Shown here: positions 8,901-28,945 of the stretch, piece by piece | Position numbering within the stretch: position 1 is the stretch's first letter | How the letters are laid out: each line of letters opens with the position of its first letter | Source of the DNA: a virus | Taxonomy: Duplodnaviria > Caudoviricetes | Strand: one strand, 5' to 3' | IMG/VR virus record: IMGVR_UViG_3300028361_000056 | Span: 1-40,561 of that record | DNA length: 40,561 nucleotides | Notes under the pieces: model-generated | What the model was told of the DNA's origin: nothing | Seen by the model: the letters and a program-made list of their open reading frames with translations, nothing else | Database searches by the model: none | Translations under genes and position numbers: made by a program

Positions 8901-8910
8901 TATATTTATA
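8901..8910 (+). promoter_or_regulatory. TATATTTATA candidate late promoter (second copy at 8702-8711)
   Basis: 23 nt upstream of ATG 8934. Confidence 0.5.
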
Positions 8911-8933: not shown

Positions 8934-11546
8934 ATGAGTGAATTAAGTAAATATTTAGTGGAACAAATTATGCTAGAGGATAATGGTGTTATAAAAAACA
9001 CAGTAGTCGTATATTCAGGTAGATTCCAACCATTCCACAAAGGCCATTATAATACATACGAAGGACTGATCAAAAAATTCGGGAAGGATAATGTATATAT
9101 TGGCACGTCCAATAAAGTAGACTCCACCAAATCACCTTTCAGCTTTAATGAAAAGAAAAAGGTAATGGTTACCATGTTCGGTATACAACCATCCAATATA
9201 GTGCAGGTAAAAAACCCATACGCACCGACGGAAATACTAAAAAAATTCGATGAGAACACGACAGGATTTATAACGGTTGTTGGTGAAAAGGATTCCAATA
9301 GATTGGGGGGTAAGTACTTTACAAAATATAACGGTAATGTAAATCAACCATATAAAGATAGGGGGTACGTTTATATATCACCTAGTCAGCCCAACTCGGT
9401 AAGTGGCACGGAAGTAAGGAACGGATTGTCCATTGGCACATATGAAGATAAAAAGGAATTCTTTGAAAAACGTGCATATCCAAGGTTCAATAAATCAATA
9501 TTTGATTTACTTACATCAAAATTAAACGAAAGAATTGAAATACAGAAAGAAGTAATAGAAGATTGGTTATTGAATGAATCATCCTCTACATTAGGATCAC
9601 AATCAGATGCAGATGATGGTCCGACTTTTATGTTTCCTAATTACGATGTATTTAGTGTTATATCACAAAACCGAGCAAAGAAAATAGGATATGATGTAGT
9701 AAATATGATAATGACCAGGGAGTTGGAGGATTATTACGAGCACCCAACGTATCCTAACGGGCCCACAAACTCGGTATCATATTATCCAGCAGGTGTGATG
9801 GGAGCGAATACACCTAACAACCAAATAGATATTTATTCAAATGGTGCGTATGCAAAGTGGTATAAACATATGACTAGAAAGGCGACTTTAACCGGATACT
9901 CAATAATATATACCCAAGTTGAACGTGATACACAGAAAAAAATATCCAAATTGGCAGGTGATGATGCTAAAGGTGATTTAAAGTTCAAAAACTTGAAAAC
10001 TCCAAATATTAATATAGATGAATCTATAACCCTGCCAATAGAAATTGGAGATACTTTGTTAATGGGAAAATTCAAGAACAAAAAAGTGGTTGTTAAAAAT
10101 ATCGGTAAAGATGAACATGGTGTACCTACTATAAATGGAAAAAAGGTATTCACTTTCAGATATGGAAAAAAAGGTACTAATATATTTGATACTATTGTAG
10201 AATTTGAAACAGATATGAATGAAATTGCTGGTACTGAAATGAGGTGTAGAAAATGTGGACACTCATGGCCACTTGAAGTCGAGGATCAGGAAAACTATAC
10301 TTGTCATAATTGTGGGTGGGATTCACAAACTGAACAATATAATTTGGATTCACCTTATATAAAGAAAAATGGATTATTGGGAAAACCAAGGACGAACATA
10401 TATGAGGCAATAGTCGATACCTTTCAGAATTTAGGTATACTTCGTAAAGATATGCCACAAATCGAATCAGATGATGTGGATAAGTACTTAGAGTACCTTA
10501 CACAAAGTGGAATCAAGTACCAAAGTGGAAAATATCCGATTTACAAATTAAAACTGACCCAAAGGGATATCAATCTGGACAAGGTAGATAAATTATCAAC
10601 GGTAAGTAAATCAAATTTATCCAAACCCATTATAATATCAAAGGATAACTATATACTCGATGGTCACCACAGAGTTCTTGCATTATATTCAATGAACGAA
10701 AAGGAATCAATACCAACCATAATGGTAAATTTATCCATAAGGGAACTATTAAAGGTAACACATCAATTTGATGATGTAAGTTACAAAACAGTAAATGAAT
10801 CTTTGGACATGGTAGATAAAATAGATAAGGAACGTGAAAAATTACATAAGGAAGTTCTACCATTGATATCCATAAAAAAAAGATTATATTCAAAAATGGA
10901 TATTTCAGAACCAAAGGGTATTGAAGAAAAAAAATTAGATAGAAAAATAGCAGATATTTATTCTAAAATAAATCAACTTATACGTAGGAAAAACAAACTT
11001 AAAAAAAATAAGGTGTTAGAAATAAATGAAGCAAAGAATAAATTAAAATTAACAATACCATCCGATATAAAAAAAATTCATGCAGCATTCAAAAAAAGCG
11101 GCAAAAAACTTTATATTGTCGGTGGAGCAGTCAGAGATGCAATATTAGGTGTTTCTATAAAGGATTTCGATTTAGCTACGGATGCAAAACCAGATGAATC
11201 ATTGGAAATCGCTAAAAATGCAGGATTTTCCACGGCGGAAGTCGGTAAGGCTTTCGGTGTAGTAATAGTGGGGGGACATGAGGTCGCTACGTTCAGGCGT
11301 GATGTTGGTAAAGGCCGTAGACCAGATGCAGTTGATTACACCGATATAGAAGGTGATGTGAAACGTAGGGATTTGACCATAAACGCTTTATTCTACGATA
11401 TGGATAGAAGTGAGATAGTCGATTTGGTCGGTGGTATAGCGGATTTAAAGAATAATAGAATTAGAACCGTAGGTAAGGCATCCGAAAGATTCGAAGAAGA
11501 TCCACTACGAATGTTAAGATTTTTAAGATTTTTACACTCAATATAA
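8934..11546 (+). CDS. Multidomain protein, piece 1: HxGH nucleotidyltransferase + Zn ribbon + ParB-like domain + head of class II CCA-adding enzyme/poly(A) polymerase
   Basis: SGRFQPFHKGH; CRKC..CHNC; PIIISKDNYILDGHHR; IVGGAVRD..KDFDLATD, EVATFR, RRDLTINAL and EDPLRMLRFLRF, followed directly by a stop. Confidence 0.85.
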   Translation: MSELSKYLVEQIMLEDNGVIKNTVVVYSGRFQPFHKGHYNTYEGLIKKFGKDNVYIGTSNKVDSTKSPFSFNEKKKVMVTMFGIQPSNIVQVKNPYAPTEILKKFDENTTGFITVVGEKDSNRLGGKYFTKYNGNVNQPYKDRGYVYISPSQPNSVSGTEVRNGLSIGTYEDKKEFFEKRAYPRFNKSIFDLLTSKLNERIEIQKEVIEDWLLNESSSTLGSQSDADDGPTFMFPNYDVFSVISQNRAKKIGYDVVNMIMTRELEDYYEHPTYPNGPTNSVSYYPAGVMGANTPNNQIDIYSNGAYAKWYKHMTRKATLTGYSIIYTQVERDTQKKISKLAGDDAKGDLKFKNLKTPNINIDESITLPIEIGDTLLMGKFKNKKVVVKNIGKDEHGVPTINGKKVFTFRYGKKGTNIFDTIVEFETDMNEIAGTEMRCRKCGHSWPLEVEDQENYTCHNCGWDSQTEQYNLDSPYIKKNGLLGKPRTNIYEAIVDTFQNLGILRKDMPQIESDDVDKYLEYLTQSGIKYQSGKYPIYKLKLTQRDINLDKVDKLSTVSKSNLSKPIIISKDNYILDGHHRVLALYSMNEKESIPTIMVNLSIRELLKVTHQFDDVSYKTVNESLDMVDKIDKEREKLHKEVLPLISIKKRLYSKMDISEPKGIEEKKLDRKIADIYSKINQLIRRKNKLKKNKVLEINEAKNKLKLTIPSDIKKIHAAFKKSGKKLYIVGGAVRDAILGVSIKDFDLATDAKPDESLEIAKNAGFSTAEVGKAFGVVIVGGHEVATFRRDVGKGRRPDAVDYTDIEGDVKRRDLTINALFYDMDRSEIVDLVGGIADLKNNRIRTVGKASERFEEDPLRMLRFLRFLHSI

Positions 11547-11549
11547 TAT

Positions 11550-12440
11550 ATGAAACCAACACGAAAGAAATGGTCTGCTACGGAAATTAAATTTTTAAGT
11601 GATTTATATATAGTAGATGGAATGGGATTGAGTGAATTATATCCCATATATATTAAATCGTATTGCAGGACTAAAACGGCAGTACATTTAAAAATAAAAA
11701 AATTGAAATTACAACATACAAAAAAACAGACCAGTGATATAAAGAGTAGAATTAATACTGGAACTGGAAATGGTATGTATGGTAAGGTTGGTTGGAGTTT
11801 GGGTAGAACCAAGGAATCATGTGATATTTTAAATGAAAATTCTAAAAAAATATCAAAGTCAAGACTAATACAATCAAAATTAGGAAATCTACCTGATATA
11901 TCTGGTGAAAATAATCCTATGTTTGGTGTAATTCCATTTAATAAAAATAAAACAAATATAGAATTGTTTGGTACACAAAAAGCTAAATTGATTTCTGATA
12001 TGATAAGTAACGGTCAGGTTAATTTTTGGAAAAATATTAATATAGATGAAAAAAATAAAAGAATCGATTTATTAAATAAAGCTAGAATACATCATAATAT
12101 TAAAACATCCATTGAAGTTAAAATGGAAAATTTTTTGATTGATAATAATATATTATATGAGTATAATAAAAAAATAGGTAGATTTTATGTTGATTTTTAT
12201 TTACCACTATATAAGTTGGTAATTGAATGTGATGGTGATTACTGGCATGCAAATCCCATATTATATAATGATATTAAATTAGATGAAACTCAAATATCAA
12301 ATAAATCCAGGGATAATAGGAAAAATTTACTATTAAATGAAAGGCATATATCATTTATTAGAATTTGGGAACATGATATTAATAATAATTTCAATGAAGT
12401 AAAAAATAAAATATGGGAACTACTGATAAGGAAAATTTAA
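11550..12440 (+). CDS. Free-standing homing endonuclease (NUMOD-like repeats + DUF559/Vsr-like PD-(D/E)XK domain) inserted in the CCA enzyme
   Basis: GNGMYGK and GENNPMFG repeats; FYVDFYLP..LVIECDGDYWH..RD..K..IRIWE. Confidence 0.8.
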   Translation: MKPTRKKWSATEIKFLSDLYIVDGMGLSELYPIYIKSYCRTKTAVHLKIKKLKLQHTKKQTSDIKSRINTGTGNGMYGKVGWSLGRTKESCDILNENSKKISKSRLIQSKLGNLPDISGENNPMFGVIPFNKNKTNIELFGTQKAKLISDMISNGQVNFWKNINIDEKNKRIDLLNKARIHHNIKTSIEVKMENFLIDNNILYEYNKKIGRFYVDFYLPLYKLVIECDGDYWHANPILYNDIKLDETQISNKSRDNRKNLLLNERHISFIRIWEHDINNNFNEVKNKIWELLIRKI

Positions 12441-14926
12441 TTATATTAAAGAATAATTCACATCTACTAAAGACTATAAGTTCTGAAAGAATCCGTGATG
12501 AATTTACTAAATCGTTAAAAAGTGCAAAATCCACTAAAGATTATCTAACTATGTTGGATAAAATTGGGTTTACTAAACTAATATTACCTACTTTGACCGT
12601 TAGTAAGCCCTACATCGATGAGAGTGATTATATAGTGTTGTTATCGTGGATATTACGAAAGAATACAATAGATTCACTTAATAAGAATTTAAATAAACTT
12701 AATTATACTTCGGATGAAATAAAACAAATTGTATTCCTATCATCATTACAAAACTTTAATCCATCGGAAGTATCACAATTTAAAAAGAAACACAACAATT
12801 CAGGATTAAGTGATTCACAGATACTACGTTATGGTAAATTAATAAGTAAAGATTTAAAGAAATTTGTAAAGTTTAACCTATCGGTAAAGGGAAACGAAGT
12901 GCCAAGTGATGTAAAGGGAGCTGATATTGGTAAGTGGATAAACGATTTGGAGACCAAAAAATTCTTAAATGAGGGAGTAAATGAGGGAGTAAATGAGGGA
13001 GTAAATACAAAGGAATTATCAAAAAAATACGGAGTACAACTTGATATCTATGAGTACCCTGATTACTTAGAACTAAGTAGAATAATTGTTCCAAAGGATA
13101 AAAGAGGACAGGGAATTGGTTCAAAGGTAATGTCCGATATAATATCATACGCAAAACAGAACAAAAAGGATATATTCTTAACACCATCCACCGACTTTGG
13201 GGGTAATAGGGGTAGATTGGTAAAATTATATAAATCATTTGGATTTAAACCGAACAGCGGTAGTAATAGAGATTTCAGAAGTAAGGAAAGTATGAAACTA
13301 ACGAATGAAATGGCAAAATCAGATTTGGACACTATTGAGAGATATGCTGATTCAAAACTATCACCGGAGGATATTGAATTTACAAAACATTTTTTTGATA
13401 GGTTGAACGATCCTAGAAACGGCAAAGAAATAACGGTTGGGGAACTTACTGGGTTCTTTAAGAGATTATCAAAGCACAAAAAGAACTTTATAGCATTTTT
13501 GTCAAAATATAATGATATTGTAATAAAGGATAAAAAAACTAAAATAAATATACCATTTATTAAGCAATCCAATAAAGTAATTGCAAAAACTGTAATGAGG
13601 AAGAATGATTTTAAAGTTAGTGTTCCTGCGTTTGTGTTCGAATCACCCCAAACCGATTCAGTAGACAAAATAGTAGAGGATATGGATTTGTTCCTACAGA
13701 AACACTTTGGAATAAAAAACCCAATTACAGAGGGCGGTGATTTTGTTGTGTGCAATGAATGTAACGGTAAATTTAAACAAATCCAATATAGACACTTAAA
13801 GTATTCACATAATATGACGATGGATGAATATAAACAAAAATATCCAAATTCATTATTGGTAAGTGAGTCATCCAAATCATTTGGGGATAAAAATCCAATG
13901 AAAAACAAAAGTGTTATAGATAAACACAAAAAAATAATGTCTAGTGATACTCACAAAGAAAAAATGAGTGAAGTGATGACTGGTAAAAACATAGGAAACA
14001 TACGAGAAGATTTAAGAAAATTAAATAAGAATTCAGAATTTAGAAAAAAAATAAGTGATGGAGTAAAAAAATCATATGAAAATAACCCAGAGCTTAGAAA
14101 ACAAAGAGGGAAAATCGGTAAAAAATACGGATTTGGTAATAAAAAATTAGTAGATTCTTTATATGAAAAACTAGGTTGGACACGACCAGAGGATAAAGAT
14201 GAATTTAAGTTATATACTGAATTAGTAAGACGAAAAACCAACGAAAATTACCAAAAGTATTTTAGCGAAATACCAAATGCTAAAAAAAGAAGTAGAGAGT
14301 TCCATTTAGATCATAAATTATCTATAAAGGATTCATATAAAATGGGATTACCTATAAGTGTAGTATCACATTATAAAAATTTGTGTATTATCGGTGGTAG
14401 ATTAAATGAAAGTAAAGGAGCTACTTCATCAATAACATTAAATGAACTCATATATGATACATTGGATTCATTAAATCCATTTGATAATAGAATATTATTA
14501 CAATGTGGTGGAAGCTACGGGCATATGAACCATCCGTTCGATACAAGTATCAACTTAACGTTCGGCCAATTGAAAGATATAGCAAACAAGGCACTTGATG
14601 GTGAACTTGAACTTACCCGTGAAAAGTGTGTATATGGTGATGCAATGATACAGACAGAAAATCATGGTGAAATGACATTACGTGAATTCGTCGATGGTAA
14701 CGTATTTGATAAAGTTCTTGCATATGATGATCAAACTGGTGTTAGTACTTATAAGGATGTTATTGCAAAGATGAATAATGGTGATACTGATGAATGGTTA
14801 GAAATCGAATTAGAAAATGGGCAGATAATTCAAGTAACTCCAAATCATAGAATTTATGTAGAAAATATTGGATATGTTCAAGCACAAGATTTAACAGAAG
14901 ATATGGAATTAAAAATTAATAAATAA
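12413..14926 (+). CDS. Multidomain protein, piece 2: CCA-enzyme body + GNAT acetyltransferase + unknown phage domain + HNH + start of ligase-like domain + split-intein N-part
   Basis: ISSERIRDEF; VPKDKRGQGIG..LYKSFGF; FTKHFFDRLND; HLDHKLS..NL..N..K; GHMNHPFD..TREK, then CVYGD..VTPNH. Confidence 0.8.
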   Translation: MGTTDKENLIILKNNSHLLKTISSERIRDEFTKSLKSAKSTKDYLTMLDKIGFTKLILPTLTVSKPYIDESDYIVLLSWILRKNTIDSLNKNLNKLNYTSDEIKQIVFLSSLQNFNPSEVSQFKKKHNNSGLSDSQILRYGKLISKDLKKFVKFNLSVKGNEVPSDVKGADIGKWINDLETKKFLNEGVNEGVNEGVNTKELSKKYGVQLDIYEYPDYLELSRIIVPKDKRGQGIGSKVMSDIISYAKQNKKDIFLTPSTDFGGNRGRLVKLYKSFGFKPNSGSNRDFRSKESMKLTNEMAKSDLDTIERYADSKLSPEDIEFTKHFFDRLNDPRNGKEITVGELTGFFKRLSKHKKNFIAFLSKYNDIVIKDKKTKINIPFIKQSNKVIAKTVMRKNDFKVSVPAFVFESPQTDSVDKIVEDMDLFLQKHFGIKNPITEGGDFVVCNECNGKFKQIQYRHLKYSHNMTMDEYKQKYPNSLLVSESSKSFGDKNPMKNKSVIDKHKKIMSSDTHKEKMSEVMTGKNIGNIREDLRKLNKNSEFRKKISDGVKKSYENNPELRKQRGKIGKKYGFGNKKLVDSLYEKLGWTRPEDKDEFKLYTELVRRKTNENYQKYFSEIPNAKKRSREFHLDHKLSIKDSYKMGLPISVVSHYKNLCIIGGRLNESKGATSSITLNELIYDTLDSLNPFDNRILLQCGGSYGHMNHPFDTSINLTFGQLKDIANKALDGELELTREKCVYGDAMIQTENHGEMTLREFVDGNVFDKVLAYDDQTGVSTYKDVIAKMNNGDTDEWLEIELENGQIIQVTPNHRIYVENIGYVQAQDLTEDMELKINK
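12966..13006 (+). repeat. 12-bp tandem repeat TAAATGAGGGAG x3.4 encoding LNEG-VNEG-VNEG-VN
   Basis: Exact copies read directly, at the CCA/GNAT domain junction. Confidence 0.95.
13739..14512 (+). mobile_element. In-frame HNH homing-endonuclease-like insert (about 258 aa) with no intein motifs
   Basis: CNEC..H...H Zn finger, GDKNPMK and NUMOD3-like helices, HNH core; lies between ITEGG and LLQCGG-SYGHM. Confidence 0.6.
14627..14923 (+). mobile_element. Split intein N-fragment (99 aa)
   Basis: Cys1 block A CVYGDAMIQT, block B IQVTPNHRIY, and A.DL before the stop; acidic. Confidence 0.9.
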
Positions 14927-14976
14927 CCACCATCGGTTTTTTCTCAACTCATATATTATAATAAAGATATATAAAT

Positions 14977-15708
14977 ATGGAAACTTGTAAATATTGTGGT
15001 AATGAAATAAAAATCAAGGGTAAGTTGAGTATGATTGGTCATATTACAAACTGTGTTGAATTTAAAAAATGGAAAGATATTACATTTACATATGAATATT
15101 TATATGAAGAATATGTTAATAAAGAAAAATCGGCCTTGCAGATAGCAAATGAAAATGGATGGAAATCTTCTACAATTATAAATAAACAATTACGGAAATT
15201 GAATATATCAGTTAGAAGTATTAAGCAATCACATTATACTGAAAAATATAAAGAACGAATTGAAAACACAAATATAGTACGTTATGGAGCAATTAATCCA
15301 TTATCACGTGGAACAATACCGTTTGAAAAAAAAAATACTACTGTATTAAAAAAATATGGAGTTGATAATGTTTGGAAAAATGAAATTGTTAAAGAAAAAA
15401 TAAGAAAATCAGGTGCATTTAAAAAATTATTTCCGAATTATAATATAAAATCAATACCAATTATAGAACAGTACGGTAAAGAAAATGGATATAATTTCCA
15501 ACATGCAGAAAATGGTGGTGAATATTATGTAGAAGGATTGGGATATTAGTTAGATGGATATGATGTCGATAAAAATGTGGCATTAGAAATTGATGAACCA
15601 CATCATTTTACAAACAGTGGTAAATTAAGAAAAAAAGATATTATACGTCAAGAAAAAATAGAAAATAAACTTGAATGTAAATTTATAAGAATTAGATATG
15701 AAAATTAA
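14977..15708 (+). pseudogene. PD-(D/E)XK-type homing endonuclease between the split-intein halves, with an in-frame TAG
   Basis: The frame continues after TAG 15547-15549: GY*LDGYDVDKNVALEIDEPHHF..RKKDIIRQEKIENKLECKFIRIRYEN*. The putative catalytic acidic residues lie after the stop. Confidence 0.8.
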
Positions 15709-15802
15709 ATCAATAAAAGCTATAAAAAAATCACAAACCAGATATGATTTAACGGTTGATGATTTTTCATGCTACTATGCAAATGATATATTAGTTCATA
15801 AT
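15698..15802 (+). mobile_element. Split intein C-fragment (35 aa)
   Basis: MKIKSIK..RYDLTV..YYANDILVHN followed by Thr+1; basic. Confidence 0.9.
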
Positions 15803-16891
15803 ACAGATGGTCAAGCACTTGCAATATCGTGGAAAAATGGTAAATTAATAGCAGCTCGTAATAAGGGACACTTGAAGAACAAAGGTGAAAACGCACTTGA
15901 CATTAACGGTATATCCGATAAGTTCAAGGGTAGGGGTGAATTGGAAAAGGCATACAACTTTGCAATGTCGGATTTATCCAATGCAATAAAATCACTATCC
16001 GATAAACAAAAGGATAAGGTATTCCAAGAAGGTGGTTCGTTCATGAATTTGGAGGTAATATATCCAACTTCGGTAAACGTAATACCATACGACCAAGCTT
16101 TATTGGTATTCCATGGAACTATGCAGTATAATATAGATGGAGTTGCAATCGGTGAGAACCAGGATGCAGGTAGAATACTAGCCGGTATGATAAAACAAGT
16201 AAACCAACAAGTACAGAAGAAATATACAATTCAGGGACCACCTGTAATTGAATTACCAAAATCACAAAAGTTATCATCACTTAAACCTCAATATATTTCA
16301 CAAATATCAAAACTACAGAGTGAATTTAAATTAAAGGATAGTGATGGTGTCGCTGAATATCATCAGTCCTGGTGGGAAAATTGGATTACGAAGAATTCCC
16401 CAACCAAATTGGATAAAAATACATTACAGGGATTAACTAAAAGATGGGCGTTCTTTGATAAATCATATAGGTTGGATAATAAGAACATTAGTGATGATAC
16501 CACGTTGAAATGGGCAAAATCACATGAAAATGATAACCATGCTAAAATATCAAAGGATAATTTAATGAAATTTGAAAATATATTCTTAGGTATCGGTGCA
16601 GATGTACTTGAATTTACTTCATCTGTCCTTGCGGTCAATCCCGATACGGCGGTAAGGAATATTAAAAAGAGACTGGATAAAACAATTAAGGATGTAAGGT
16701 CGGGTGGTAGTGAAAAACAAATTGCCAAGTTGGAACTGGAACTTAAAAGGTTGAATGCCATTGGTGGTGTTGATAAAATAGTACCTAATGAAGGAATTGT
16801 ATTTAGATATACTGCAAATGATGAAATTTACACACTGAAACTAACTGGAAGCTTCGCGGCCCTTAACCAGTTGTTAGGTATTTTTTACTAA
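15698..16891 (+). CDS. Multidomain protein, piece 3: split-intein C-part + remainder of a KxDG nucleotidyltransferase (RNA-ligase-like) domain
   Basis: Splicing joins REK|TDGQ (motif I). Later motif-like segments: NLEVI, LVFHG, EGIVFR, LKLTG. Confidence 0.7.
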   Translation: MKIKSIKAIKKSQTRYDLTVDDFSCYYANDILVHNTDGQALAISWKNGKLIAARNKGHLKNKGENALDINGISDKFKGRGELEKAYNFAMSDLSNAIKSLSDKQKDKVFQEGGSFMNLEVIYPTSVNVIPYDQALLVFHGTMQYNIDGVAIGENQDAGRILAGMIKQVNQQVQKKYTIQGPPVIELPKSQKLSSLKPQYISQISKLQSEFKLKDSDGVAEYHQSWWENWITKNSPTKLDKNTLQGLTKRWAFFDKSYRLDNKNISDDTTLKWAKSHENDNHAKISKDNLMKFENIFLGIGADVLEFTSSVLAVNPDTAVRNIKKRLDKTIKDVRSGGSEKQIAKLELELKRLNAIGGVDKIVPNEGIVFRYTANDEIYTLKLTGSFAALNQLLGIFY

Positions 16892-16940: not shown

Positions 16941-17747
16941 ATGATAGTATATAAAGTTACAAATAAGATAAGTGGAAATGTTTATATTGGACAAACCATA
17001 AAAAGTTTAGAGGATAGAAAACAACAACATATAAAATCCATTGAAACGGGTAAAACTCATTTTTACAATACACTTCGTTCCTATGGTGAAGATAATTTCC
17101 TATGGGAAGTTATAGATACTGCTAAATCCAAAAAAGAATTAAATAAAAAAGAAATTCATTGGATAAACGAATATGACTCAAAAAATAATGGGTATAATAT
17201 GGTAGATGGCGGAACTGGTGGATATAATGAAGAAGCTGTAAAAGCTAATCGTAAAAAGAAAGGAAAAAAATGGGAAGATATATACACACCAGAAGGACTT
17301 TTAGTAATGCAAGAAGTTTCTAAACAATTGGGTATAAAATTAGGTGAAATTTCTAAAAATAGAACGGCCGAAGAAAAAATAAGAATAGCTAGAATGGGAG
17401 CAGATGCACTAAATAATTCAGATTACCAACATACAGAAGAAACGAAGAAAAAAATATCGGATGCACAAATCGGTATAACATATGAAGAACGATACGGTAA
17501 GATAAATTCAGAAAAAGTTAAAAAGAACGTGTCCGAAGGAACAAAAAAAGCAATGGCTAAATTAGATTGGGATAATCTTATGGAAAAGGCACTAAAGGGA
17601 AGAAAAAACTATTGGGATAGAAAACACGAAGAACAACGAAAAGAAATAGTGAGATTAAAATCAGAAGGATTTAAGGTAAAGGAAATTATAGCTAAATTGA
17701 ATGTTTCATATCCTACATACTATAAGAGATTATCCGAAATTCAATAA
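16941..17747 (+). CDS. GIY-YIG homing endonuclease with NUMOD3-like repeats
   Basis: IVYKVTN..VYIGQT..R..H, E..WI, GYN..GG; HTEETKKKIS. Confidence 0.9.
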   Translation: MIVYKVTNKISGNVYIGQTIKSLEDRKQQHIKSIETGKTHFYNTLRSYGEDNFLWEVIDTAKSKKELNKKEIHWINEYDSKNNGYNMVDGGTGGYNEEAVKANRKKKGKKWEDIYTPEGLLVMQEVSKQLGIKLGEISKNRTAEEKIRIARMGADALNNSDYQHTEETKKKISDAQIGITYEERYGKINSEKVKKNVSEGTKKAMAKLDWDNLMEKALKGRKNYWDRKHEEQRKEIVRLKSEGFKVKEIIAKLNVSYPTYYKRLSEIQ

Positions 17748-19104: not shown

Positions 19105-19944
19105 ATGGTAAAGCAGAGTTTAAAGGATATAATCCGTATGGAATATATAAAGTGCTCGCAGGATCCAATACATTTTATGAAAAAGTATTGTATGATTCAA
19201 CATCCAGTCCGCGGAAAGATACCGTTTCACTTATTTCCGTTCCAAGAGGATACTTTGACGGATTTTACAAAAAACCGTTATAATATTGTATTAAAATCAA
19301 GACAGACGGGTATATCCACATTAGTTGCTGGTTATTCGTTATGGAAAATGATTTTCAACGAGGATTTTATGGTAATGGTAATTGCAACAAAACAAGAGGT
19401 TGCAAAAAATCTGGTAACCAAGGTAAGGGTAATGAACGACTATCTACCTAGTTGGTTGAAGATAGAATCGGCCGAGGATAATAAACTTTCACTTAGATAC
19501 ACAAATGGTTCTATGATAAAGGCTACATCATCCGGTGGCGATGCAGGACGTTCCGAGGCACTATCCCTATTGGTGTTCGATGAAGCTGCATTTATCCAAA
19601 ATATAGAGGATATTTGGATTTCATCACAATCTACCCTATCAACGGGTGGTGATGCTATTATATTATCTACCCCGAACGGTGTGGGTAACTTTTTTCACAA
19701 AACTTGGGTAAGAGCCGAGGAAAACCCAGAGGATAACGAATTCAATCCAATAAAACTACATTGGAGCGTACACCCTGAAAGAGATCAAAGGTGGAGGGAT
19801 AAACAAGATGCTATTATAGGTAAAAAGGGAGCGGCGCAGGAATGCGATTGTTTGTGGGGGGAATCTACTGTAATGGTATTTGATGAATTTACGGGTGAAG
19901 AGCGATGGATTACTTTAAGTGATTTATATGATATTTTGGAATAA
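19105..19944 (+). CDS. terL: Terminase large subunit, ATPase half + 31-aa split-intein N-part
   Basis: LFPFQ, Walker A KSRQTGIST, Walker B LLVFDEAAF, STPNG. Confidence 0.93.
   Translation: MVKQSLKDIIRMEYIKCSQDPIHFMKKYCMIQHPVRGKIPFHLFPFQEDTLTDFTKNRYNIVLKSRQTGISTLVAGYSLWKMIFNEDFMVMVIATKQEVAKNLVTKVRVMNDYLPSWLKIESAEDNKLSLRYTNGSMIKATSSGGDAGRSEALSLLVFDEAAFIQNIEDIWISSQSTLSTGGDAIILSTPNGVGNFFHKTWVRAEENPEDNEFNPIKLHWSVHPERDQRWRDKQDAIIGKKGAAQECDCLWGESTVMVFDEFTGEERWITLSDLYDILE
19849..19941 (+). mobile_element. Atypical split intein N-fragment (31 aa)
   Basis: CLWGESTVMVFDEFTGEERWITLSDLYDILE* after the extein AQECD. Confidence 0.85.
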
Positions 19945-19982
19945 ATAATATCTATACAAGAATGTGAATGTAAGAAATATGA

Positions 19983-20063
19983 ATCAGACGAAAAAAAGAT
20001 ATAGAACGTCAATTAGAAATAGAAAATTTACTTAAATGTAAGTTTATACGTATTCAAATATAA
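19983..20063 (+). pseudogene. 26-codon relic of a homing endonuclease C-terminus
   Basis: IRRKKDIERQLEIENLLKCKFIRIQI*; 17/22 identical to the C-terminus of the 14977-15708 nuclease; its TAA overlaps the TerL-C ATG. Confidence 0.8.
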
Positions 20064-20404
20064 TGCAAAAATATACATTACGAACTAATACCAGATATAA
20101 AATAAAAACACCAAGTGGGTATCAATCATTCGGTGGTGTTCGTAAGCTTAAAAAGGAATCACATTATAAAATCTGGCTATCCAATGGAAAAGTATTAAAA
20201 TGTTCATTAACACATAAATTTATATCTAATGAAATAGAAATATCAGCTGATAAATTACAAATAGGTGATGAAATAGATAGTGAATCCAATGAATCAGTAT
20301 CCATACTTAATATAATCTACTTAAATAGAAATATACAATTATATGATATTGTAGAAGTTGGTAATGGTAATATATTTAATGTGGATGGTATTGTTTCTCA
20401 TAAT
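20063..20404 (+). mobile_element. Atypical split intein C-fragment (114 aa)
   Basis: KIKTPSGY, KCSLTHKF, LYDIVEV..GIVSHN followed by Cys+1. Confidence 0.9.
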
Positions 20405-21271
20405 TGTGACTTTATATCATCCGGTAATCAAGTAATCGATGCAGAGATATTACAGTTTTACAAAGAAACACATTGTCAGCCCCCATTGGAAAAAACAGGT
20501 ATAGATGGAAACCTATGGAAGTGGGAATATCCCGATTACAATAAATCATATATGGTTATAGCAGATGTCGCCAGAGGTGATTCGACTGATTATTCGGCGT
20601 GTCATGTAATAGATGTTGAAAACGCGGTACAAGTCGCCGAATATGTGGGTAAACTTGGTACACGGGATTTTGGTAATTTCCTGGTATCACTTTCAACCGA
20701 ATATAACGAGGCCTTACTTGTAATAGAGAACGCAAATGTAGGTTGGGCAGTGATACAACAAGTAATAGATAGAAATTATGGAAATCTTTTCTATATGAGT
20801 AAGGATTTAAAATATGTTGATACGGAAAGACAGATGACCAACCGATATTATGCAGAAGAACGTAATATGGTCGCGGGCTTTTCGACAACTTCCCGAACTA
20901 GACCGCTTATCATCTCCAAATTGGATATGTATTTCAAAGAACAATCCATTACGATACGTTCGACTCGATTAATAGAACAATTGATGGTATTCATATGGAA
21001 CGGTAGTAAGGCGGAAGCAATGAGGGGGTACAATGATGATTTGGTCATGGCAATGTCCATTGGATTGTGGGTACGCGATACCGCATTGAGATTAAGACAG
21101 GAAGGTGTTGATTTAACTAAACGAGCATTAGGTGGAATAACCCAACAGAACGAACCAATAGGGTTCTTTAGTGGTACTGGTCAAGAAGATGACCCATGGA
21201 CAATGAAAGTAGGTGGTAAGGATGAAGATTTAAAATGGTTGCTAGGCGGCCACCCAAATAAAAAAGGTTAA
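20063..21271 (+). CDS. terL: Terminase large subunit, nuclease half, preceded by a 114-aa split-intein C-part
   Basis: CDFISSG, IADVARG..DYS, IENAN, GYNDDLVMA; joined product is 536 aa. Confidence 0.93.
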   Translation: MQKYTLRTNTRYKIKTPSGYQSFGGVRKLKKESHYKIWLSNGKVLKCSLTHKFISNEIEISADKLQIGDEIDSESNESVSILNIIYLNRNIQLYDIVEVGNGNIFNVDGIVSHNCDFISSGNQVIDAEILQFYKETHCQPPLEKTGIDGNLWKWEYPDYNKSYMVIADVARGDSTDYSACHVIDVENAVQVAEYVGKLGTRDFGNFLVSLSTEYNEALLVIENANVGWAVIQQVIDRNYGNLFYMSKDLKYVDTERQMTNRYYAEERNMVAGFSTTSRTRPLIISKLDMYFKEQSITIRSTRLIEQLMVFIWNGSKAEAMRGYNDDLVMAMSIGLWVRDTALRLRQEGVDLTKRALGGITQQNEPIGFFSGTGQEDDPWTMKVGGKDEDLKWLLGGHPNKKG

Positions 21272-21316: not shown

Positions 21317-24300
21317 ATGGTAGATACAACATTTTATGGTAGATTAAAGAAATTATTTTCTTCCAAGGCAATCATCACAATTGATGCTGACGGTAAAAGG
21401 AAAGTAATTGACCACGATGAAAAACAACAGACTAATATATCTGGGTTACGGGATAGGTACACCAAACTTCAAAAAAGTTTCTACCAACAATCAGGTGCGG
21501 AACAATCTATGGCATATCAACAAGTCCGTAGGGAAGTTTTCCGGGATTTTGATGCAATGGATAATGACCCCATCATATCCTCCGCGTTGGACATATATGC
21601 AGATGAATGTTTGTCGGGAGATACTTTAATTCCATTATTAGACGGGACAAAGAAAACTATTAAAGAATTGTATGATGAAAATACAACTGATATTTGGTTA
21701 TATGGGTTGGATAATGATAATACATTCAAACCCGTTAAGGCAGATAAAATTGCATATAATGGCAAAAAACAACTGTATGAAATAACATTCGATGATGGTA
21801 CTAAGATAAAATGTACAAGTAATCATATATGGATTGATTTTAATGGAAATCAAATATTTACTGATGATTTAACTATAGGTGAAAGTATATTAGGATATAA
21901 TATTATAAATGAATTTGCAACTTCAAATAATCATAAAGTAATATCAATCAAAAAAATTGGTATAGAAGATACATATGATGTAGTCAATGCAGGTGATAAT
22001 CATATATACGCATTGGAATCAAATGATGGTTCTAAACTATATACACATAATTCAACATTAAAAAATGAAGCTGGTGATGTGTTAGTCATTCAATCGGATA
22101 ATGATAAGGTACAGGTTTTATTGGATAACCTTTTTTATGATATTCTTAACATTGAATTCAACTTATGGCCATGGGTTCGTAACCTGTGTAAGTATGGGGA
22201 TTTATTTTTATCCATGGAAATTGTAGAGAATCAGGGTATAATCAACGTAACACCTCAATCGGTATATAATGTTGAGAGAAACGAACGAATCGACCCGACT
22301 AATCCAAAATCTGTTAATTTTAAGGTGGAATTGGATCCTGATATGAAAGGCACCTATGATAATTATGAAATGGCTCATTTCAGATTGTTATCGGATACAA
22401 ATTGGTTGCCATATGGTAAATCAATGATAGAGAATGGTAGACGGTTATGGAAGCAACTTTCATTAATGGAAGATGCAATGTTAATCCACCGTATCATGAG
22501 GGCGCCGGAGAAAAGAATATTTTCCATTGATATCGGTAATATAGCACCGAACGAAGTGGACAACTACATGCAACGTATCATCAACAAGATGAAAAAAGTA
22601 CCATTCCTCAACAAGAGTGATGGTGATTATAACTTAAAATACAATATGCAAAACCTAACAGAGGATTTTTATCTTCCTGTACGTGGTAAGGATAGTGGTA
22701 CTAGGATAGAAAACCTACAAGGATTGGATTATAGTGCAATCGAAGATATCGATTACCTAAAGAACAAATTATTTGCTGCATTGAAAGTTCCAAGAGCGTA
22801 TTTGGGATATGAAGAAAACGTATGTATAGTACCAGAGACAAAAATTCCATTACTAGACGGTACTGTAAAAACAGTAGCCGAACTTATAGTTGATTTTGAA
22901 AACGGCATACAAAATTACACATATTCAATTGATGTTAATCAAAACATAGCACCAGGTAAAATAGAATGGGCTGGAATGACTCGTGAAAATGCAGAATTGG
23001 TAAGAGTGTGGTTGGATAATAACGAATACATAGATTGTACTCCTGATCATAATTTCTTAACTCGTGATAATAATTGGATAGAAGCTAAGGATTTGAAACC
23101 AAATCAGTCACTAATGCCATTGTATCTAGATAACGGTGGATATAAAGATAATTATACTACTGTATATAATCCAAAAACCAAAGATTATAAATTAGTTCAT
23201 AATATAATATCTGAATATTATGATATAAAGAAAAATAAAAATGTTATACATCATAAGGATTTTAATTCAAGGAATAATAATCCTGATAATTTAGATGGGT
23301 CCATGTCATTTTGGGAGCATAGAGAGTATCATTCTAATTTAACTGAAAAAACATTAAATTCTCCCAAAAATATCCTAAAACGAATATCAGATCCTAATTG
23401 GATAAAATCAGCAATAGTTGGTGGTAGAATAGGTGGTCTGAAATCAGGTAAACGTTTAGGTGAATGGGTTCGAAAATTTGGTCCGTCTAATAAAGGAAAT
23501 AGGTCTGGTCTTGATGTGAATTGTCCAACTTGTAATGATGTATTTTACAAAACTAATTCATCATCTAAAATATATTGTTCAAAAAAATGCAATACCAACC
23601 CTAAATATAATACGAAATATGATAAAATCTCAAAGTCTGAACTTAATGAAGTAGCTAGTCAATCATCATCATTTTCAGATTTAGAGAATAAATTAAATAT
23701 AGATAGAAATACTCTTAATAGAATTTTTGATAGACATAATATAGATAAAGTATCATTTATACAAAATAACATGCCACTAGCATTGAAAAATAAAAATTTT
23801 GTTAGAAACTATCCTATATTAAATCATAAAGTAGATAGAGTTGAATTTTTAACAGAAAATAGGGATACTGCTGATTTACGAATATCAATGCATCATAATT
23901 TTGCTACGAATGCTGGTGTAATAATACACAATTCTGGAAAAGCAACTTTAGCAGCAGAAGATGTTAGATTCGCACGAACGATTGAACGTATACAACGGAT
24001 GGTTATATCTGAACTAACCAAGATGGCGGTAATTCACTTATATTCCAATGGAATTACGGATTCGGAAATGGCCAACTTTTCATTACAATTAATCAATCCA
24101 TCTACGATATACGAACAGGAAAAGGTAAATCTTTGGAGTGAGAAAATCAGATTAGCTTCAGATATAAAGGATCTTAATATGTTATCTAAAGATTGGATAT
24201 ATGAAAATATATTCAAAATGACTGATAAGGAAAGGGATTTGCAAAAAGTAAATGTAATACAAGATTTAAAGGATAAATTCAGATATACATCGATTCAGGA

Positions 24301-24607
24301 TGAAGGTAACGACCCCGCTGTTCAACCAGAACCGAACGATGTAGAGGAATCTTTGAGTAATATCAAAAAAGAACTAACTGTGAATAAGGGTGGTAGACCC
24401 AAGGAAGGTAATACATACGGAAAGGATAAACATCCATACGGCCGAGACCCTTTGGGTGATAAAGAAAGGAAATCTGCCATGTCCGGTAGGACTTCCGAAT
24501 CAAAAATTAAGGGATATATAAATGGAATATCATCAAATCGTAAATATTTAAATGAGAGAATTGATATGTTGGATGATAGAAATATTATAGATGATACTAA
24601 AAATTAA
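21317..24607 (+). CDS. gp20: T4 gp20-like portal protein with two inteins (578 aa after splicing)
   Basis: ALDIYADE, LMEDAMLIHRIMRAPEKRIF.ID.GN, EDFYLP.RG, ALKVP, EDVRFAR. Confidence 0.93.
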   Translation: MVDTTFYGRLKKLFSSKAIITIDADGKRKVIDHDEKQQTNISGLRDRYTKLQKSFYQQSGAEQSMAYQQVRREVFRDFDAMDNDPIISSALDIYADECLSGDTLIPLLDGTKKTIKELYDENTTDIWLYGLDNDNTFKPVKADKIAYNGKKQLYEITFDDGTKIKCTSNHIWIDFNGNQIFTDDLTIGESILGYNIINEFATSNNHKVISIKKIGIEDTYDVVNAGDNHIYALESNDGSKLYTHNSTLKNEAGDVLVIQSDNDKVQVLLDNLFYDILNIEFNLWPWVRNLCKYGDLFLSMEIVENQGIINVTPQSVYNVERNERIDPTNPKSVNFKVELDPDMKGTYDNYEMAHFRLLSDTNWLPYGKSMIENGRRLWKQLSLMEDAMLIHRIMRAPEKRIFSIDIGNIAPNEVDNYMQRIINKMKKVPFLNKSDGDYNLKYNMQNLTEDFYLPVRGKDSGTRIENLQGLDYSAIEDIDYLKNKLFAALKVPRAYLGYEENVCIVPETKIPLLDGTVKTVAELIVDFENGIQNYTYSIDVNQNIAPGKIEWAGMTRENAELVRVWLDNNEYIDCTPDHNFLTRDNNWIEAKDLKPNQSLMPLYLDNGGYKDNYTTVYNPKTKDYKLVHNIISEYYDIKKNKNVIHHKDFNSRNNNPDNLDGSMSFWEHREYHSNLTEKTLNSPKNILKRISDPNWIKSAIVGGRIGGLKSGKRLGEWVRKFGPSNKGNRSGLDVNCPTCNDVFYKTNSSSKIYCSKKCNTNPKYNTKYDKISKSELNEVASQSSSFSDLENKLNIDRNTLNRIFDRHNIDKVSFIQNNMPLALKNKNFVRNYPILNHKVDRVEFLTENRDTADLRISMHHNFATNAGVIIHNSGKATLAAEDVRFARTIERIQRMVISELTKMAVIHLYSNGITDSEMANFSLQLINPSTIYEQEKVNLWSEKIRLASDIKDLNMLSKDWIYENIFKMTDKERDLQKVNVIQDLKDKFRYTSIQDEGNDPAVQPEPNDVEESLSNIKKELTVNKGGRPKEGNTYGKDKHPYGRDPLGDKERKSAMSGRTSESKIKGYINGISSNRKYLNERIDMLDDRNIIDDTKN
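21608..22051 (+). mobile_element. Mini-intein (148 aa) in portal
   Basis: CLSGDT..KCTSNH..TYD..THN|S. Confidence 0.92.
22823..23932 (+). mobile_element. Intein (370 aa) with HNH endonuclease in portal
   Basis: CIVPET..DCTPDH..IHHKDFNSRNNNPDNL..CPTC..CSKKC..IIHN|S. Confidence 0.92.
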
Positions 24608-24763: not shown

Positions 24764-25627
24764 ATGAGTAAGATAAGAAATAGTAAATTCAAAAATACTG
24801 GAATTCTTTTTGAATTATTGACCAAACAAATTACTTTGGAAATTTTAAATAATTCCCCAAAGGAAAATGCTAGGGAAATAGTAAGGGAATTCTTTGCGAG
24901 TAGAACTGAATTAAACAAGGAGCTTAAATTGTACAATCTTCTATTGAACGAAAAATATAATTCGGAGAACAAGGCGGAAAAATTCATAGATGTAGTTCTT
25001 GAAGCTAGAATGAAAATAGATGAAAAGAAACTATCCCGTGAAAAGTATAACTTGGTTAAGATCATTAAGGAAAACTTTCAATTGGATAATTTCCTATCTT
25101 CCCCTATAACTAATTATAGGGTACTTGCATCCATACATAAGTTATTCGAAGCAAGGAAAAGTGATTCCATTGATATCAAGGATGCATTTAATTCCAAATA
25201 TACGATAGTGGAACATATTTCCACTAAACCAATACAATCCAAATCCGATAAGAAAGATATGGTAATAGAAACATATAAGACTCAAGAAAAAGACCTTAGA
25301 ATGCTTACCTATAAAATCTTGGTAGAATCTTTTAATAAAAAATATACAAACTTAAATGATGATCAAAAGGATTTATTGCGTGAGTATATTAACAATGTCA
25401 CGAACACTACAAAGTTCGGTGATTATTATTCGACCCAACTGAAAAATTCCATAACGGAGCTCCATACATTATATACCAATATTACTGATACGATTACTAA
25501 GATAAAATTGAAGGAAACAATTAACGTATTGAAGAAACAAAGAATCGGTAAAAAAATAAGTGATAATCAGGTCTCAGCATTGATGATATCATACGAATTA
25601 ATTAAAGAAATAAAAAATGTCGGATAA
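24764..25627 (+). CDS. Hypothetical helical protein in head module
   Basis: 287-aa ORF; position downstream of the portal. Confidence 0.6.
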   Translation: MSKIRNSKFKNTGILFELLTKQITLEILNNSPKENAREIVREFFASRTELNKELKLYNLLLNEKYNSENKAEKFIDVVLEARMKIDEKKLSREKYNLVKIIKENFQLDNFLSSPITNYRVLASIHKLFEARKSDSIDIKDAFNSKYTIVEHISTKPIQSKSDKKDMVIETYKTQEKDLRMLTYKILVESFNKKYTNLNDDQKDLLREYINNVTNTTKFGDYYSTQLKNSITELHTLYTNITDTITKIKLKETINVLKKQRIGKKISDNQVSALMISYELIKEIKNVG

Positions 25628-26993
25628 ACTAGAAAATCTCAAATCTTATATCCGTGAGCTCGTAATTGAAATCGAGGATGAGTTGGATGAATCAACTGCG
25701 ACTGGTGATATATCTGGATATCAGACTCCCAATGCATTTGGTGATGATTCAAAACAATCAAAAAAGAAAATAAAAGATGTGGCGACACAATCGGGGTATA
25801 CAGTTGTAAATGAAGGAATCAAATCATCCGAGGTTAAAAAAACTATATCCAATTTAATAAAATTAACTAAAGATAAATCCTTCCTTAGTATAAAAAACGT
25901 ATTCAGTAAAAGTTATACCGAAACTACGGATATAATAATGATCGAATATTCTTATGATAGAGAATATTCAAGTATGGGTAGTAATACCAAGTGGTTCAAT
26001 ATTCAATTTCAGAAGGAAGATAGGGATGCTGTCATAAAATTACTTACTCCTATTTTAAAAAAATATAATCGTAAAGTACCTAAACTTCTAGATGAAAGTG
26101 ATCCATGTTGGAAAAACTACAAACAAATTGGTACAAAGCAAAAGAACGGTAAGGACGTTCCTAATTGTGTTCCTAAAAACGAATCCATATTAAAGGAATA
26201 CGAATACGCACCACCAAAAAAGGATATCCTACGCAACACCAATGGTATAATGAGTTTAATCGGTAGTAATGGAATTAGATTTATCCTTAAACCAGAAACC
26301 AAGGTATTTCAAAACGGTGGAACATGGATATTCACCGATGGCAAATCAGATATGTGGTTAAATTATCGAAAACCAGTATCGGTTGTTAAAAAATTGGGAA
26401 GAGCTGGTAACACTACAAAGAATCTATACAACAACGCAATGGATTCAAAAAGATATAATGAAGATTCAATTCCAGGTGGATTATCGGATAATAAAACCTT
26501 AGAGGATATTGTCAATCACCATAAAAACGAATCCATGACTAAAGACGAGTTTATAAAACGATTAATTAACACAACAATAGTTGATGCAAAAAGTGGACAA
26601 GGTAGAATATCCATTGATGGTTTTATGTATTTCGTCCAGAAAAAAGGAGATAAATCAATCACTAAAAATGATATTATTTCAGTAGCCAAAAAATTACCGA
26701 ATATAACTCTTAAATCTGGAGTTATGTCCGTTAAGGAATCAATCAAAAGGACTAATCGTTGGTTGGAACTTAAAAATGATGAAACTAATCCTAATGAGAA
26801 ACTAGCAATGGGATTAAAGGAATTGAAATACAAGTTACGAGAAGTTGAATCATTCATTCGGTGGTATAATAAAATTGGTAAAATGAACGAACTGGATTCA
26901 GATTCATATTGGAAACGGACAAACAAACATATTTATAAAATAAAAGAGCGATTAATTAATATCGCTAGAACAATTCAAGAACTAGAAAAATGA
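25617..26993 (+). CDS. Modular head-associated protein
   Basis: Modules separated by LDE/VNE/KNE/VKE, including CWKNYKQIGTKQKNGKDVPNCVP and IPGGLSD. Confidence 0.6.
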   Translation: MSDKLENLKSYIRELVIEIEDELDESTATGDISGYQTPNAFGDDSKQSKKKIKDVATQSGYTVVNEGIKSSEVKKTISNLIKLTKDKSFLSIKNVFSKSYTETTDIIMIEYSYDREYSSMGSNTKWFNIQFQKEDRDAVIKLLTPILKKYNRKVPKLLDESDPCWKNYKQIGTKQKNGKDVPNCVPKNESILKEYEYAPPKKDILRNTNGIMSLIGSNGIRFILKPETKVFQNGGTWIFTDGKSDMWLNYRKPVSVVKKLGRAGNTTKNLYNNAMDSKRYNEDSIPGGLSDNKTLEDIVNHHKNESMTKDEFIKRLINTTIVDAKSGQGRISIDGFMYFVQKKGDKSITKNDIISVAKKLPNITLKSGVMSVKESIKRTNRWLELKNDETNPNEKLAMGLKELKYKLREVESFIRWYNKIGKMNELDSDSYWKRTNKHIYKIKERLINIARTIQELEK

Positions 26994-27841: not shown

Positions 27842-27849
27842 TAAATTCA

Positions 27850-28035
27850 ATGAAACTAAGTAGAATAAAAGAAATAATAGAAGAAGAGATTACCAATGTA
27901 AAATGGGGTAGGACTCATGTTATAAATGAAAATAATGAACCACTATCGGAACGTGAAATTCGTAAAATAATACGTAAGGAAGTTTCTGCATTATTTTTTA
28001 CACTATTTAAACAACGTAAAGTATGGGGAGGATAA
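27850..28035 (+). CDS. Small head-cluster protein
   Basis: MKLSRIKEIIEEE leader and an internal IRKIIRKE repeat of it. Confidence 0.55.
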   Translation: MKLSRIKEIIEEEITNVKWGRTHVINENNEPLSEREIRKIIRKEVSALFFTLFKQRKVWGG

Positions 28036-28036
28036 T

Positions 28037-28342
28037 ATGATAAAGTTCAAAAATTTAATAATAGAGAGAACAGATAAAACTATACACAGTAAAGGTGAAG
28101 TTGTAGCTACTAATTATAAGTTAAAAAAAGATACTAAAGGTTGGTGGAAGTCGAATGGGTTTGCTGATGAGGATTCTCGTATAACGTTAAAAAAGGGAAC
28201 TGTTATAGATGGTGTAATAAAACATTCAAATGAATCATATTCTATGTATTCTGAATTAACAGGTAAACAAATTGGAAGCACTTTATTTTCATCCCAATCC
28301 ACAAGATGGGAAAGTGATGAATTGAAATTCAAAAATAATTAA
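28037..28342 (+). CDS. Small protein with capsid-targeting-like leader
   Basis: MIKFKNLIIE N-terminus. Confidence 0.55.
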   Translation: MIKFKNLIIERTDKTIHSKGEVVATNYKLKKDTKGWWKSNGFADEDSRITLKKGTVIDGVIKHSNESYSMYSELTGKQIGSTLFSSQSTRWESDELKFKNN

Positions 28343-28351
28343 AAAATCACG

Positions 28352-28945
28352 ATGAGAAATCTATTAATAGAAACAAACCTCTTTAAAGGTAAACTGAACG
28401 AAGATGAAAATGGACGTACAATAGTCCGTGGTGTCCTTCAACGTGCAGGTGCACCCAATCAGAACGAAAGAGTATATCCAAGACAAATACTTGAACGGGA
28501 AGCTATCAAATATCAGACTCTAATCAAGGAACGAAGGGCATTGGGTGAGTTAGACCACCCTGATTCATCGGTAATCAATTTAAGGAACGTTTCCCATAAT
28601 ATACGTGAAATACATTGGGAGGGTGATAATTTAATGGGAACTGTAGAGATATTACCAACTCCATCGGGGAACATTCTTAAAGAACTTTTAAGAGCGGGAA
28701 TCCTATTAGGTATATCATCTAGGGGTATGGGTTCTGTTACACCATTAAGAGAAGGCGGTGTAAAAGTTGGTGAAGATTTTGAACTTATAGGTTGGGATTT
28801 TGTATCAAATCCATCTACTCACGGTGCGTTCATGAGTCCTGTTAATGAATCAAAACTACAAAATATCATACCAGTGTGTGATATTTACTGTAAATCACAA
28901 GATTTAATGCGAGAAATAATAATGGAATTAACTCCATTAATATAA
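28352..28945 (+). CDS. gp21: Prohead core protease, T4 gp21-like
   Basis: N.N.RVYP, GELDHP, VSH, TPSG, GISSRGMGS, DFVSNPS. Confidence 0.93.
   Translation: MRNLLIETNLFKGKLNEDENGRTIVRGVLQRAGAPNQNERVYPRQILEREAIKYQTLIKERRALGELDHPDSSVINLRNVSHNIREIHWEGDNLMGTVEILPTPSGNILKELLRAGILLGISSRGMGSVTPLREGGVKVGEDFELIGWDFVSNPSTHGAFMSPVNESKLQNIIPVCDIYCKSQDLMREIIMELTPLI

Follow-up and report, generated by a model that had tools for sequence, protein, structure and literature searches.

The question raised by this locus is what kind of product is made from a gene that strings disparate enzyme modules together, lies among head genes and is broken into three open reading frames (ORFs). The window, by which we mean the whole stretch of 40,561 nucleotides (40.6 kb) of the IMG/VR virus record IMGVR_UViG_3300028361_000056, is a piece of the head cluster of a T4-like phage, with terminase, portal, gp21-like protease, a scaffold-like gene and a gp23-like capsid gene. 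The public runs containing its sequence are lake-water metagenomes, two of them possibly the source of the record, and no RNA run is among those listed. Piece 1 of the gene is ORF 8934–11546 (870 aa), piece 2 is ORF 12413–14926 (837 aa, residues 739–837 being the N-part of an intein) and piece 3 is ORF 15698–16891 (397 aa, residues 1–35 being the intein C-part). The lengths without intein parts given in a first-pass annotation, 870+738+362 aa, are correct and add up to 1970 aa, and the module content proposed there was recovered by profile searches, with a CCA-adding enzyme spanning pieces 1 and 2 and a KxDG domain spanning pieces 2 and 3. With a probability of roughly 0.6 we favour the reading that the gene encodes a modular enzyme precursor, which an N-terminal leader would load into the prohead, which the gp21-like protease of the phage would cut at its seams, behind [ILVM]xE motifs, and whose released modules, a mixture of enzymes acting on nucleotides and on RNA, would be injected. 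Such a precursor would have fixed ends, an NMNAT-like transferase and an enzyme with an RNA-ligase fold, and a middle drawn from a swappable pool (here ParB-like, CCA, GNAT and RegB-like).

The architecture, the shuffling of modules and the gene context were observed directly by computation in relatives. Piece 3 matches 3387 proteins of 633–2000 aa (7984 candidates scored) and has 62–78% identity to relatives; among the listed relatives the N-terminus corresponds to piece 1, while the ligase starts with residues 695–739 of piece 2 and goes on directly into residues 36–397 of piece 3. Because intact one-ORF relatives join the matches of pieces 1, 2 and 3 in this way, the three ORFs are, judged by sequence, descendants of one gene. 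From 142 complete intact relatives 23 representatives were taken at a 75% identity cut. The HxGH nucleotidyltransferase is N-terminal and the KxDG domain C-terminal in 142/142, and both order and content of the middle modules vary, so that in the domain order, which the first-pass annotation had proposed to compare, only the ends are fixed. One relative (P0007, 1832 aa in one ORF) has the HxGH, CCA, RegB-like, GNAT and ligase modules in a different order. The promoter-like motif TATTTATA, to which the first-pass annotation had pointed, lies 31 nt upstream of piece 1 and is found upstream in 22/23 distinct relatives with 0.48 expected by shuffling. Downstream of the gene a terminase is present in all 55 loci with at least 5 kb of downstream sequence, and a protease in 22/23 loci with about 10 kb of it. 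The Microcystis phage Mel-JY01 (WWT39297.1) and the Flavobacterium phage immuto (genes 183 and 191) are cultured relatives. Literature searches that covered few subscription papers and not the supplements of Iyer 2017/2021, which may list such proteins, gave no description of the family, and searches on DUF6267 and on Mel-JY01 gave 0 results each.

All xxE motifs of the first-pass annotation are present, in piece 1 as LVE10, LNE199/215, IDE363, MNE430, IYE491, VNE622 and INE699, and in piece 2 as LNE187/VNE191/VNE195, TNE299, VFE410 and ITE440. Their relation to the seams was assessed with the test residue masked, the breakpoints being taken from BLAST comparisons among the 23 representatives and the motifs counted afterwards. 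[ILVM]xE is present at 100/143 module starts (background 12%) and at 93/143 module ends (background 15%), and control motifs with D, K, Q or N show no enrichment in the same test. In the window polyprotein there are 19 such motifs in 241 linker residues and 19 in 1729 core residues, a sevenfold higher density in the linkers with cores drawn by hand and not blind. Immediately before the ligase [ILV]xE is found in 120/121 close proteins, the sole exception being the window protein, in which the expected motif is replaced by LQC/GG. A leader ending in hydrophobic-x-Glu is found on piece 1 and in the 23 representatives, and among stand-alone genes sharing modules with the polyproteins a leader of the type h-x-x-h-h-x-E is carried by 10/20, vs 59/710 other ORFs (p 2.6e-6); the stand-alone ParB-like gene of locus L077 has the leader MIRLKSLIHE. 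A gp21-like protease is encoded in the window, as first annotated, and in the capsid protein of the phage LLE52 and LDE61 are close to the start of mature gp23 in a weak alignment. Publications are cited here by PMC number. T4 gp21 cleaves Alt at ITE-6 and LTE-619, after Glu (PMC5694885), leaders direct cargo into the prohead (PMC9026906, PMC7411985, PMC9958956), and a cytidylyltransferase of a T4-like cyanophage was found in virions with 3 peptides (PMC10665884). PHROG cytidyltransferase families match piece 1. The paper PMC9239159 contains no virion mass spectrometry.

The KxDG domain was modelled from an intact relative (L078) with a predicted local distance difference test (pLDDT) score of 93.6. 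In the structural comparison ranks 1–8 are all RNA ligases (Z 8.6–7.2, root-mean-square deviation (rmsd) 3.9–4.9, 177–201 aligned residues), and Foldseek places Trl1 and Rnl1 first with E about 1e-3. Fold and KxDG lysine are shared with the ATP-dependent RNA ligases NgrRnl/Rnl5, REL1, Trl1-LIG and T4 Rnl1/Rnl2, from which the domain differs by an identity of 10–15%, by a large helical insertion and by the lack of a significant match in PDB, Pfam and PHROG sequence searches. The residues E124, E370, G371 and K382 are invariant, and the motifs resemble ligase motifs I, III, IIIa, IV and V. DUF6267 makes up 24% of the Atlas neighbours. The scores are moderate but consistent, indicating an RNA-ligase-type fold, as first proposed, with a putative ligation activity. 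The HxGH domain has its best PDB matches among NMNAT enzymes (E 6e-6), with NadM-like matches below cutoffs and PPAT also matched, and NadM-type and CCA-type motifs are both present. The FTKHFFDR module, with a model pLDDT of 93.6, has T4 RegB (2HX6, PF10715) as first match (Z 7.7, 103 aligned residues, rmsd 3.1), followed by RelE/ParE (Z 6.2–5.1), and Pfam RegB_T4 weakly matches 13/29 members (best E 3e-4). Its invariant H27/R31 align with RegB H48/R52, and an R52L mutant serves as regB-defective control (PMC1702504). The module is only 10% identical to T4 RegB, its alignment lacks a second invariant histidine, and it has a late cargo context where RegB is an early gene. By its model it probably has a RegB/RelE-like RNase fold and is a putative endoribonuclease. 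A PADLOC search was uninformative.

Several points weigh against the favoured reading. Homologous seams recur across the 23 representatives, so the seam p-values overstate independence, and the earlier statement that nearly every boundary carries xxE is only modestly borne out in the window protein alone, where the blind test gives 5/8 ends (p=0.016) and 1/5 starts (p=0.65). Nineteen of its [ILVM]xE motifs lie inside cores. The window and 26/119 distant relatives have lost the Glu that precedes the ligase (motif present in 93/119), and piece 2 has no leader and with that no direct packaging route. The cyanophage virion cytidylyltransferase gives indirect support only and is not established as an orthologue. 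The ligase Z scores of 7.7–8.6 are near the background of 7–8 stated for the tool, with a Foldseek E of only about 1e-3, the hhalign profile-profile probability of the FTKHFFDR module with RegB is only 0.3%, and the cultured phages PANV1 and Melnitz encode their RegB-like homologues away from head clusters.

The first-pass annotation saw in the gene a dedicated, injected repair kit, in which the modules jointly heal, seal and re-tail tRNA and restore nicotinamide adenine dinucleotide (NAD). A ligase fold and an NMNAT-like domain in all 142 relatives agree with this, as do the HD and AAA_33 kinase domains added in some relatives (both in P0147; HD in 4/28), and CCA enzymes and ligases are reported to serve RNA repair in jumbo phages (PMC7824862). 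The shuffled middle does not fit a coherent kit, with CCA in 30/142 relatives, ParB in 9, GNAT in 7, many unnamed modules and a RegB-like RNase fold in 77/142; the Pfam scan matched no kinase or phosphatase family in the window polyprotein, and the 40.6-kb window has no tRNA gene. NadM is reported to need NadV (PMC9503650), and none was found among the 27 window proteins scanned, the genome being partial. The repair kit is in our view rather improbable, and mixed cargo is to be preferred because the RNase fold is in 77/142 relatives and CCA in only 30/142. An RNase fold beside GNAT and ParB would also suit mixed cargo of the polyvalent type better (PMC5512222, PMC9503650). The injected set might restore NAD and damaged tRNA or RNA while also modifying or cutting host molecules; the anti-defence role first proposed stays a putative one.

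It is unlikely that the seams are fossils, left as xxE-leader remnants when stand-alone cargo genes fused, with the protein working uncut in the late-infection cytoplasm or in the head. Stand-alone versions of the modules do bear such leaders, the ligase tolerates the loss of Glu in distant relatives, and piece 2 is leaderless. Diverged proteins nevertheless retain the motif at most seams, it is amplified in the window (LNE-GVNE-GVNE), and among the examples printed relatives without the Glu before the ligase often keep another xxE slightly upstream. KELLLM-GG is a second Glu-less class of ligase start.

The gene has been invaded by three likely homing endonucleases, one splitting the CCA enzyme, one lying between the halves of a split intein and one inserted in frame. 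At the junction of pieces 1 and 2 there are 3 non-coding bases before the Vsr-like ORF, which overlaps piece 2 by 28 nt, and neither an intein (Hint) match nor an Rfam intron was found. A group I intron was rejected, as Rfam is blank and only these 3 bases are non-coding. Since the junction has no splicing element, a single precursor of about 1970 aa is not supported by the sequence, and of the proposal that the three ORFs are one gene the common ancestry stands but not the single polypeptide; only pieces 2 and 3 are predicted to trans-splice. Two precursors would be made, one of 870 aa and one of about 1100 aa after trans-splicing, and the two halves of the CCA enzyme would need to come together again, in the manner of Aeh1 NrdA-a/b.

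Among seven viral loci with Vsr-like relatives of at least 43% identity, five, representing 3 distinct sequences, have a stand-alone CCA gene interrupted at the same residue, and two adjoin an intact gene. The 10 best metagenome endonuclease loci comprise three with both CCA halves, one with an N-half ending at the same place, five beside an intact nucleotidyltransferase gene and one unclear, and none of these closest 7 viral and 10 metagenome loci has a split CCA within another polyprotein. The window halves are 82–83% (N) and 55–58% (C) identical to intact polyprotein CCAs vs 59% and 38–42% to split stand-alone CCAs. Because the halves resemble intact polyprotein CCAs but the residues at the break agree with the split ones, we infer that the break arose by homing with a short conversion tract. 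Aligned to the intact sequence, the halves abut and have no added tails. The N-half matches CCA enzymes in PDB with E 1.4e-27 vs 1.2e-22 for poly(A) polymerases, and the motifs DxD, RRD, EDxLR and SxERxxxE are present; PRK13299 (E 9e-41) is below cutoff, as are the nearly equal NCBIfam scores for CCA and PcnB. By its PDB matches the enzyme seems nearer to CCA-adding enzymes, its specificity not being settled. Literature searches covering few subscription papers gave no description of a split CCA enzyme. In run X2, 11831–12622 assembles apart from its flanks and at half their depth (5.9 vs 11–12), and the CCA-splitting endonuclease may therefore have a second allele there; contigs aligned to the window show no joints or variants, and no joint is listed for 11831–12622.

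The split intein is inserted directly after the motif I lysine of the ligase (...TREK), and its C-part ends HN before TDGQ. Its halves of 99 and 35 aa have opposite charge, and Cys1, His-Asn and Thr+1 are all present, from which trans-splicing of pieces 2 and 3 is predicted. L077 has the same arrangement with the endonuclease ORF open, and there too a reverse-strand EKTDG copy of the intein-less site is found a short way 5' of the endonuclease. The premature in-frame TAG of the window endonuclease is found also in a second assembly (L001). Recoding of TAG is unlikely, as it also terminates the major capsid gene. Viral contigs gave no further alleles of the intein.

The HNH domain, first counted as a member of the kit, sits between ITE-GG and LLQC-GGSYGHM, where it replaces the Glu before the ligase. 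It is absent from all 142 complete intact relatives and carried by 12/266 proteins and 1/79 loci, mostly fused to the ligase start, and on this pattern it is a mobile insert and not a kit member. The LLxC-GG start without an upstream HNH in P0138, P0154, P0222 and P0223 is likely a scar of endonuclease loss. An intein reading of LLQ/C was rejected, as the Cys can be preceded by Q, L, K, T or V and no Hint domain was found.

The breaks could also mean that whatever follows the CCA break is in decay in this phage, or that it goes unpackaged, for which the missing leader of piece 2 and the premature TAG of the second endonuclease could be cited. We hold this to be quite unlikely; long open frames and every motif are retained in both pieces, the same CCA break recurs in other phages with both halves intact, and piece 3 is as similar to its relatives as stated above. 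Very unlikely is a role as a prohead core component of the gp22/67/68 type, broken down with its enzymes as undelivered passengers. The neighbours 25617 and 31194 are likewise NE[SGA]-rich (3 where 0.4 are expected and 5 where 0.7 are expected) and have modules in common with the polyproteins, but the catalytic-type motifs show strong conservation, and by the hand-drawn cores the linkers are richer in xxE than the enzyme cores.

Under the favoured reading of an injected mixed cargo, a more far-reaching proposal can be made only tentatively. Aquatic T4-like phages, a very large group, may use the head protease as a polyprotein maturase, with one gene whose fixed NMNAT-like and new-family RNA-ligase ends accept any xxE-flanked module and deliver it with the virion. 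In the window the split CCA enzyme might be a clasp that carries the leaderless precursor 2 (GNAT, RegB-like RNase and trans-spliced ligase) into the head, and packaging would then depend on CCA re-forming.

The gene may work like the T4 internal proteins and the polyvalent proteins, yet it is organised unlike either. T4 IPI–III and Alt likewise combine a gp21-like protease in the cluster, a short [IL]xE-ended leader and enzyme cargo (PMC9026906, PMC5694885), and the IPII/III leader MKTYQEFIAE is comparable to that of piece 1, but T4 cargo loses terminal propeptides only, whereas about 10 internal seams would here release many enzymes. Polyvalent proteins (Iyer et al. 2017, PMC5512222) share the 2–15 disparate domains, the pool of GNAT, ParB and BECR-type RNase domains, the late-gene context and the predicted injection. 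Pfam gave no MuF, zincin MPTase or ArdC-N match in the window protein, many of the middle modules being unnamed, and the processing would be in trans by the head protease; the main text of that paper contains 'CCA' 0 times and 'prohead' once. Pieces 2 and 3 are like the fractured genes of Dassa et al. 2009 (PMC2677866), in which split-intein halves flank a Vsr-like free-standing endonuclease gene, but here the host is an RNA-ligase-fold domain in a cargo polyprotein and the endonuclease has a premature stop. In Aeh1 nrdA-a/mobE/nrdA-b (Crona et al. 2011, PMC3045599) a free-standing endonuclease likewise interrupts an enzyme, with neither intron nor intein, the differences being the CCA enzyme, the Vsr-like nuclease and the lack of added tails.

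The cargo gene is real and present across the family, and its product is probably processed by a protease. The window adds the case of a single gene invaded three times, with a second precursor that would lack a leader; the gene tolerates three different endonucleases, including a CCA split without splicing, and supplies a natural split intein. If the reading is right, tailed phages of a widespread group process polyproteins in the style of eukaryotic viruses, a leader with xxE seams would be a sequence rule predicting injected anti-host cargo from metagenomes, and two families would be gained, one of uncharacterised RNA ligases and one of RegB-like RNases.

Table 1. Features of the three-piece gene and the protease gene in the window.
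Feature	Position	Strand	Remarks
TATTTATA, promoter-like motif	8903..8910	+	31 nt 5' of start codon; also precedes 17810 and portal gene
Leader MSELSKYLVE/QIMLE, predicted capsid-targeting propeptide	8934..8978	+	Similar xxE-ended leader in 23 representatives (by inspection); function inferred
HxGH nucleotidyltransferase, NadM/NMNAT-like (GRFQPFHKGH ... SGTEVR)	8979..9530	+	Pfam PF01467 E 2.5e-7; phrog_395/3041
Two unnamed modules, aa 216–363 and 364–423	9579..10202	+	Family searches uninformative; kept in 122/142 and 141/142 relatives
CxxC...CxxC zinc ribbon and linker	10224..10406	+	Weak Pfam Zn_ribbon_4/HypA matches; 92/142 relatives
ParB-like module (DGHHR)	10407..10799	+	phrog_2859 E 1e-28, phrog_620 E 2e-4; 9/142 relatives
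Basic segment between VNE622 and INE699	10800..11030	+	1/142 relatives
Class II CCA-adding enzyme, N-half (DFD, RRD, EDPLR), stop-terminated	11031..11546	+	PDB, PRK13299 matches
Vsr-like free-standing endonuclease gene inside CCA enzyme, 296 aa	11550..12440	+	DUF559/Vsr matches
CCA enzyme C-half, own ATG, without leader	12413..12973	+	PolyA_pol_RNAbd E 4.7e-8; junction alignment
LNE-GVNE-GVNE, tandem candidate cleavage sites	12965..12997	+	Sequence
GNAT acetyltransferase module	12998..13309	+	PF13508 E 9e-7; 7/142 relatives
FTKHFFDR module, RegB/RelE-fold putative endoribonuclease	13310..13642	+	Structure model and Pfam RegB_T4; 77/142 relatives
In-frame C2H2-like/HNH insert, likely homing endonuclease, fused to ligase N-terminus	13733..14506	+	LLQC in place of xxE
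RNA-ligase-like domain, N-part to motif I lysine (GGSYGHMNHPFD...TREK)	14507..14626	+	Family alignment, fold
Split intein N-part, Cys1, 99 aa, acidic (20 D/E vs 7 K/R)	14627..14926	+	TIGR01445 above cutoff
15-nt copy of intein-less target (reads EKTDG) near endonuclease upstream region	14929..14943	-	Exact, single in window
Vsr-like endonuclease gene between intein halves, in-frame TAG 15547–15549	14977..15702	+	ORF reading
Split intein C-part, 35 aa, ends HN, Thr+1	15698..15802	+	TIGR01443 above cutoff
RNA-ligase-like domain, C-part (TDGQ, NLEV, LLVFH, EGIVF, KLTG)	15803..16891	+	Fold of intact relative L078
gp21-like prohead protease, proposed processing enzyme	28352..28945	+	Peptidase_S77 E 1.6e-27; T4 gp21 5JBL E 1.3e-17

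Directly 3' of the ligase, a GIY-YIG/NUMOD3 homing endonuclease is encoded at 16941–17747, and at this place L077 has its leader-bearing stand-alone ParB-like gene. Further inteins are found in the window. The terminase (19105–21271) is split by an atypical split intein with a short N-part and a long C-part, and in its 116-nt spacer QLEIENLLKCKFIRIQI can still be read, left over from a Vsr-like endonuclease of the same family; the portal gene (21317–24607) has two intein-domain stretches, one with HNH, and the SbcC-like ORF 105–2399 starts with an apparent intein C-part, as read from the sequence only. Several head-region ORFs in 25617–33412 (25617, 31194) resemble further modular cargo or core proteins. 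After the protease, 29285–30289 encodes an Alt-like ADP-ribosyltransferase, whose non-catalytic N-terminal module follows xxE and recurs in the polyproteins of L023, L060 and L061; a catalytic domain of this kind within polyproteins was rejected, the matches being to this N-terminal module only. Downstream of the capsid gene, 36684–38459 encodes a zinc-finger/Vsr-like nuclease fused to a methyltransferase-like domain. In the cultured Flavobacterium phage immuto (L215, 107131–118931) a modular gene annotated as NMNAT and a RegB-like gene with the leader MKKSQLRQIIKE are located upstream of the terminase.

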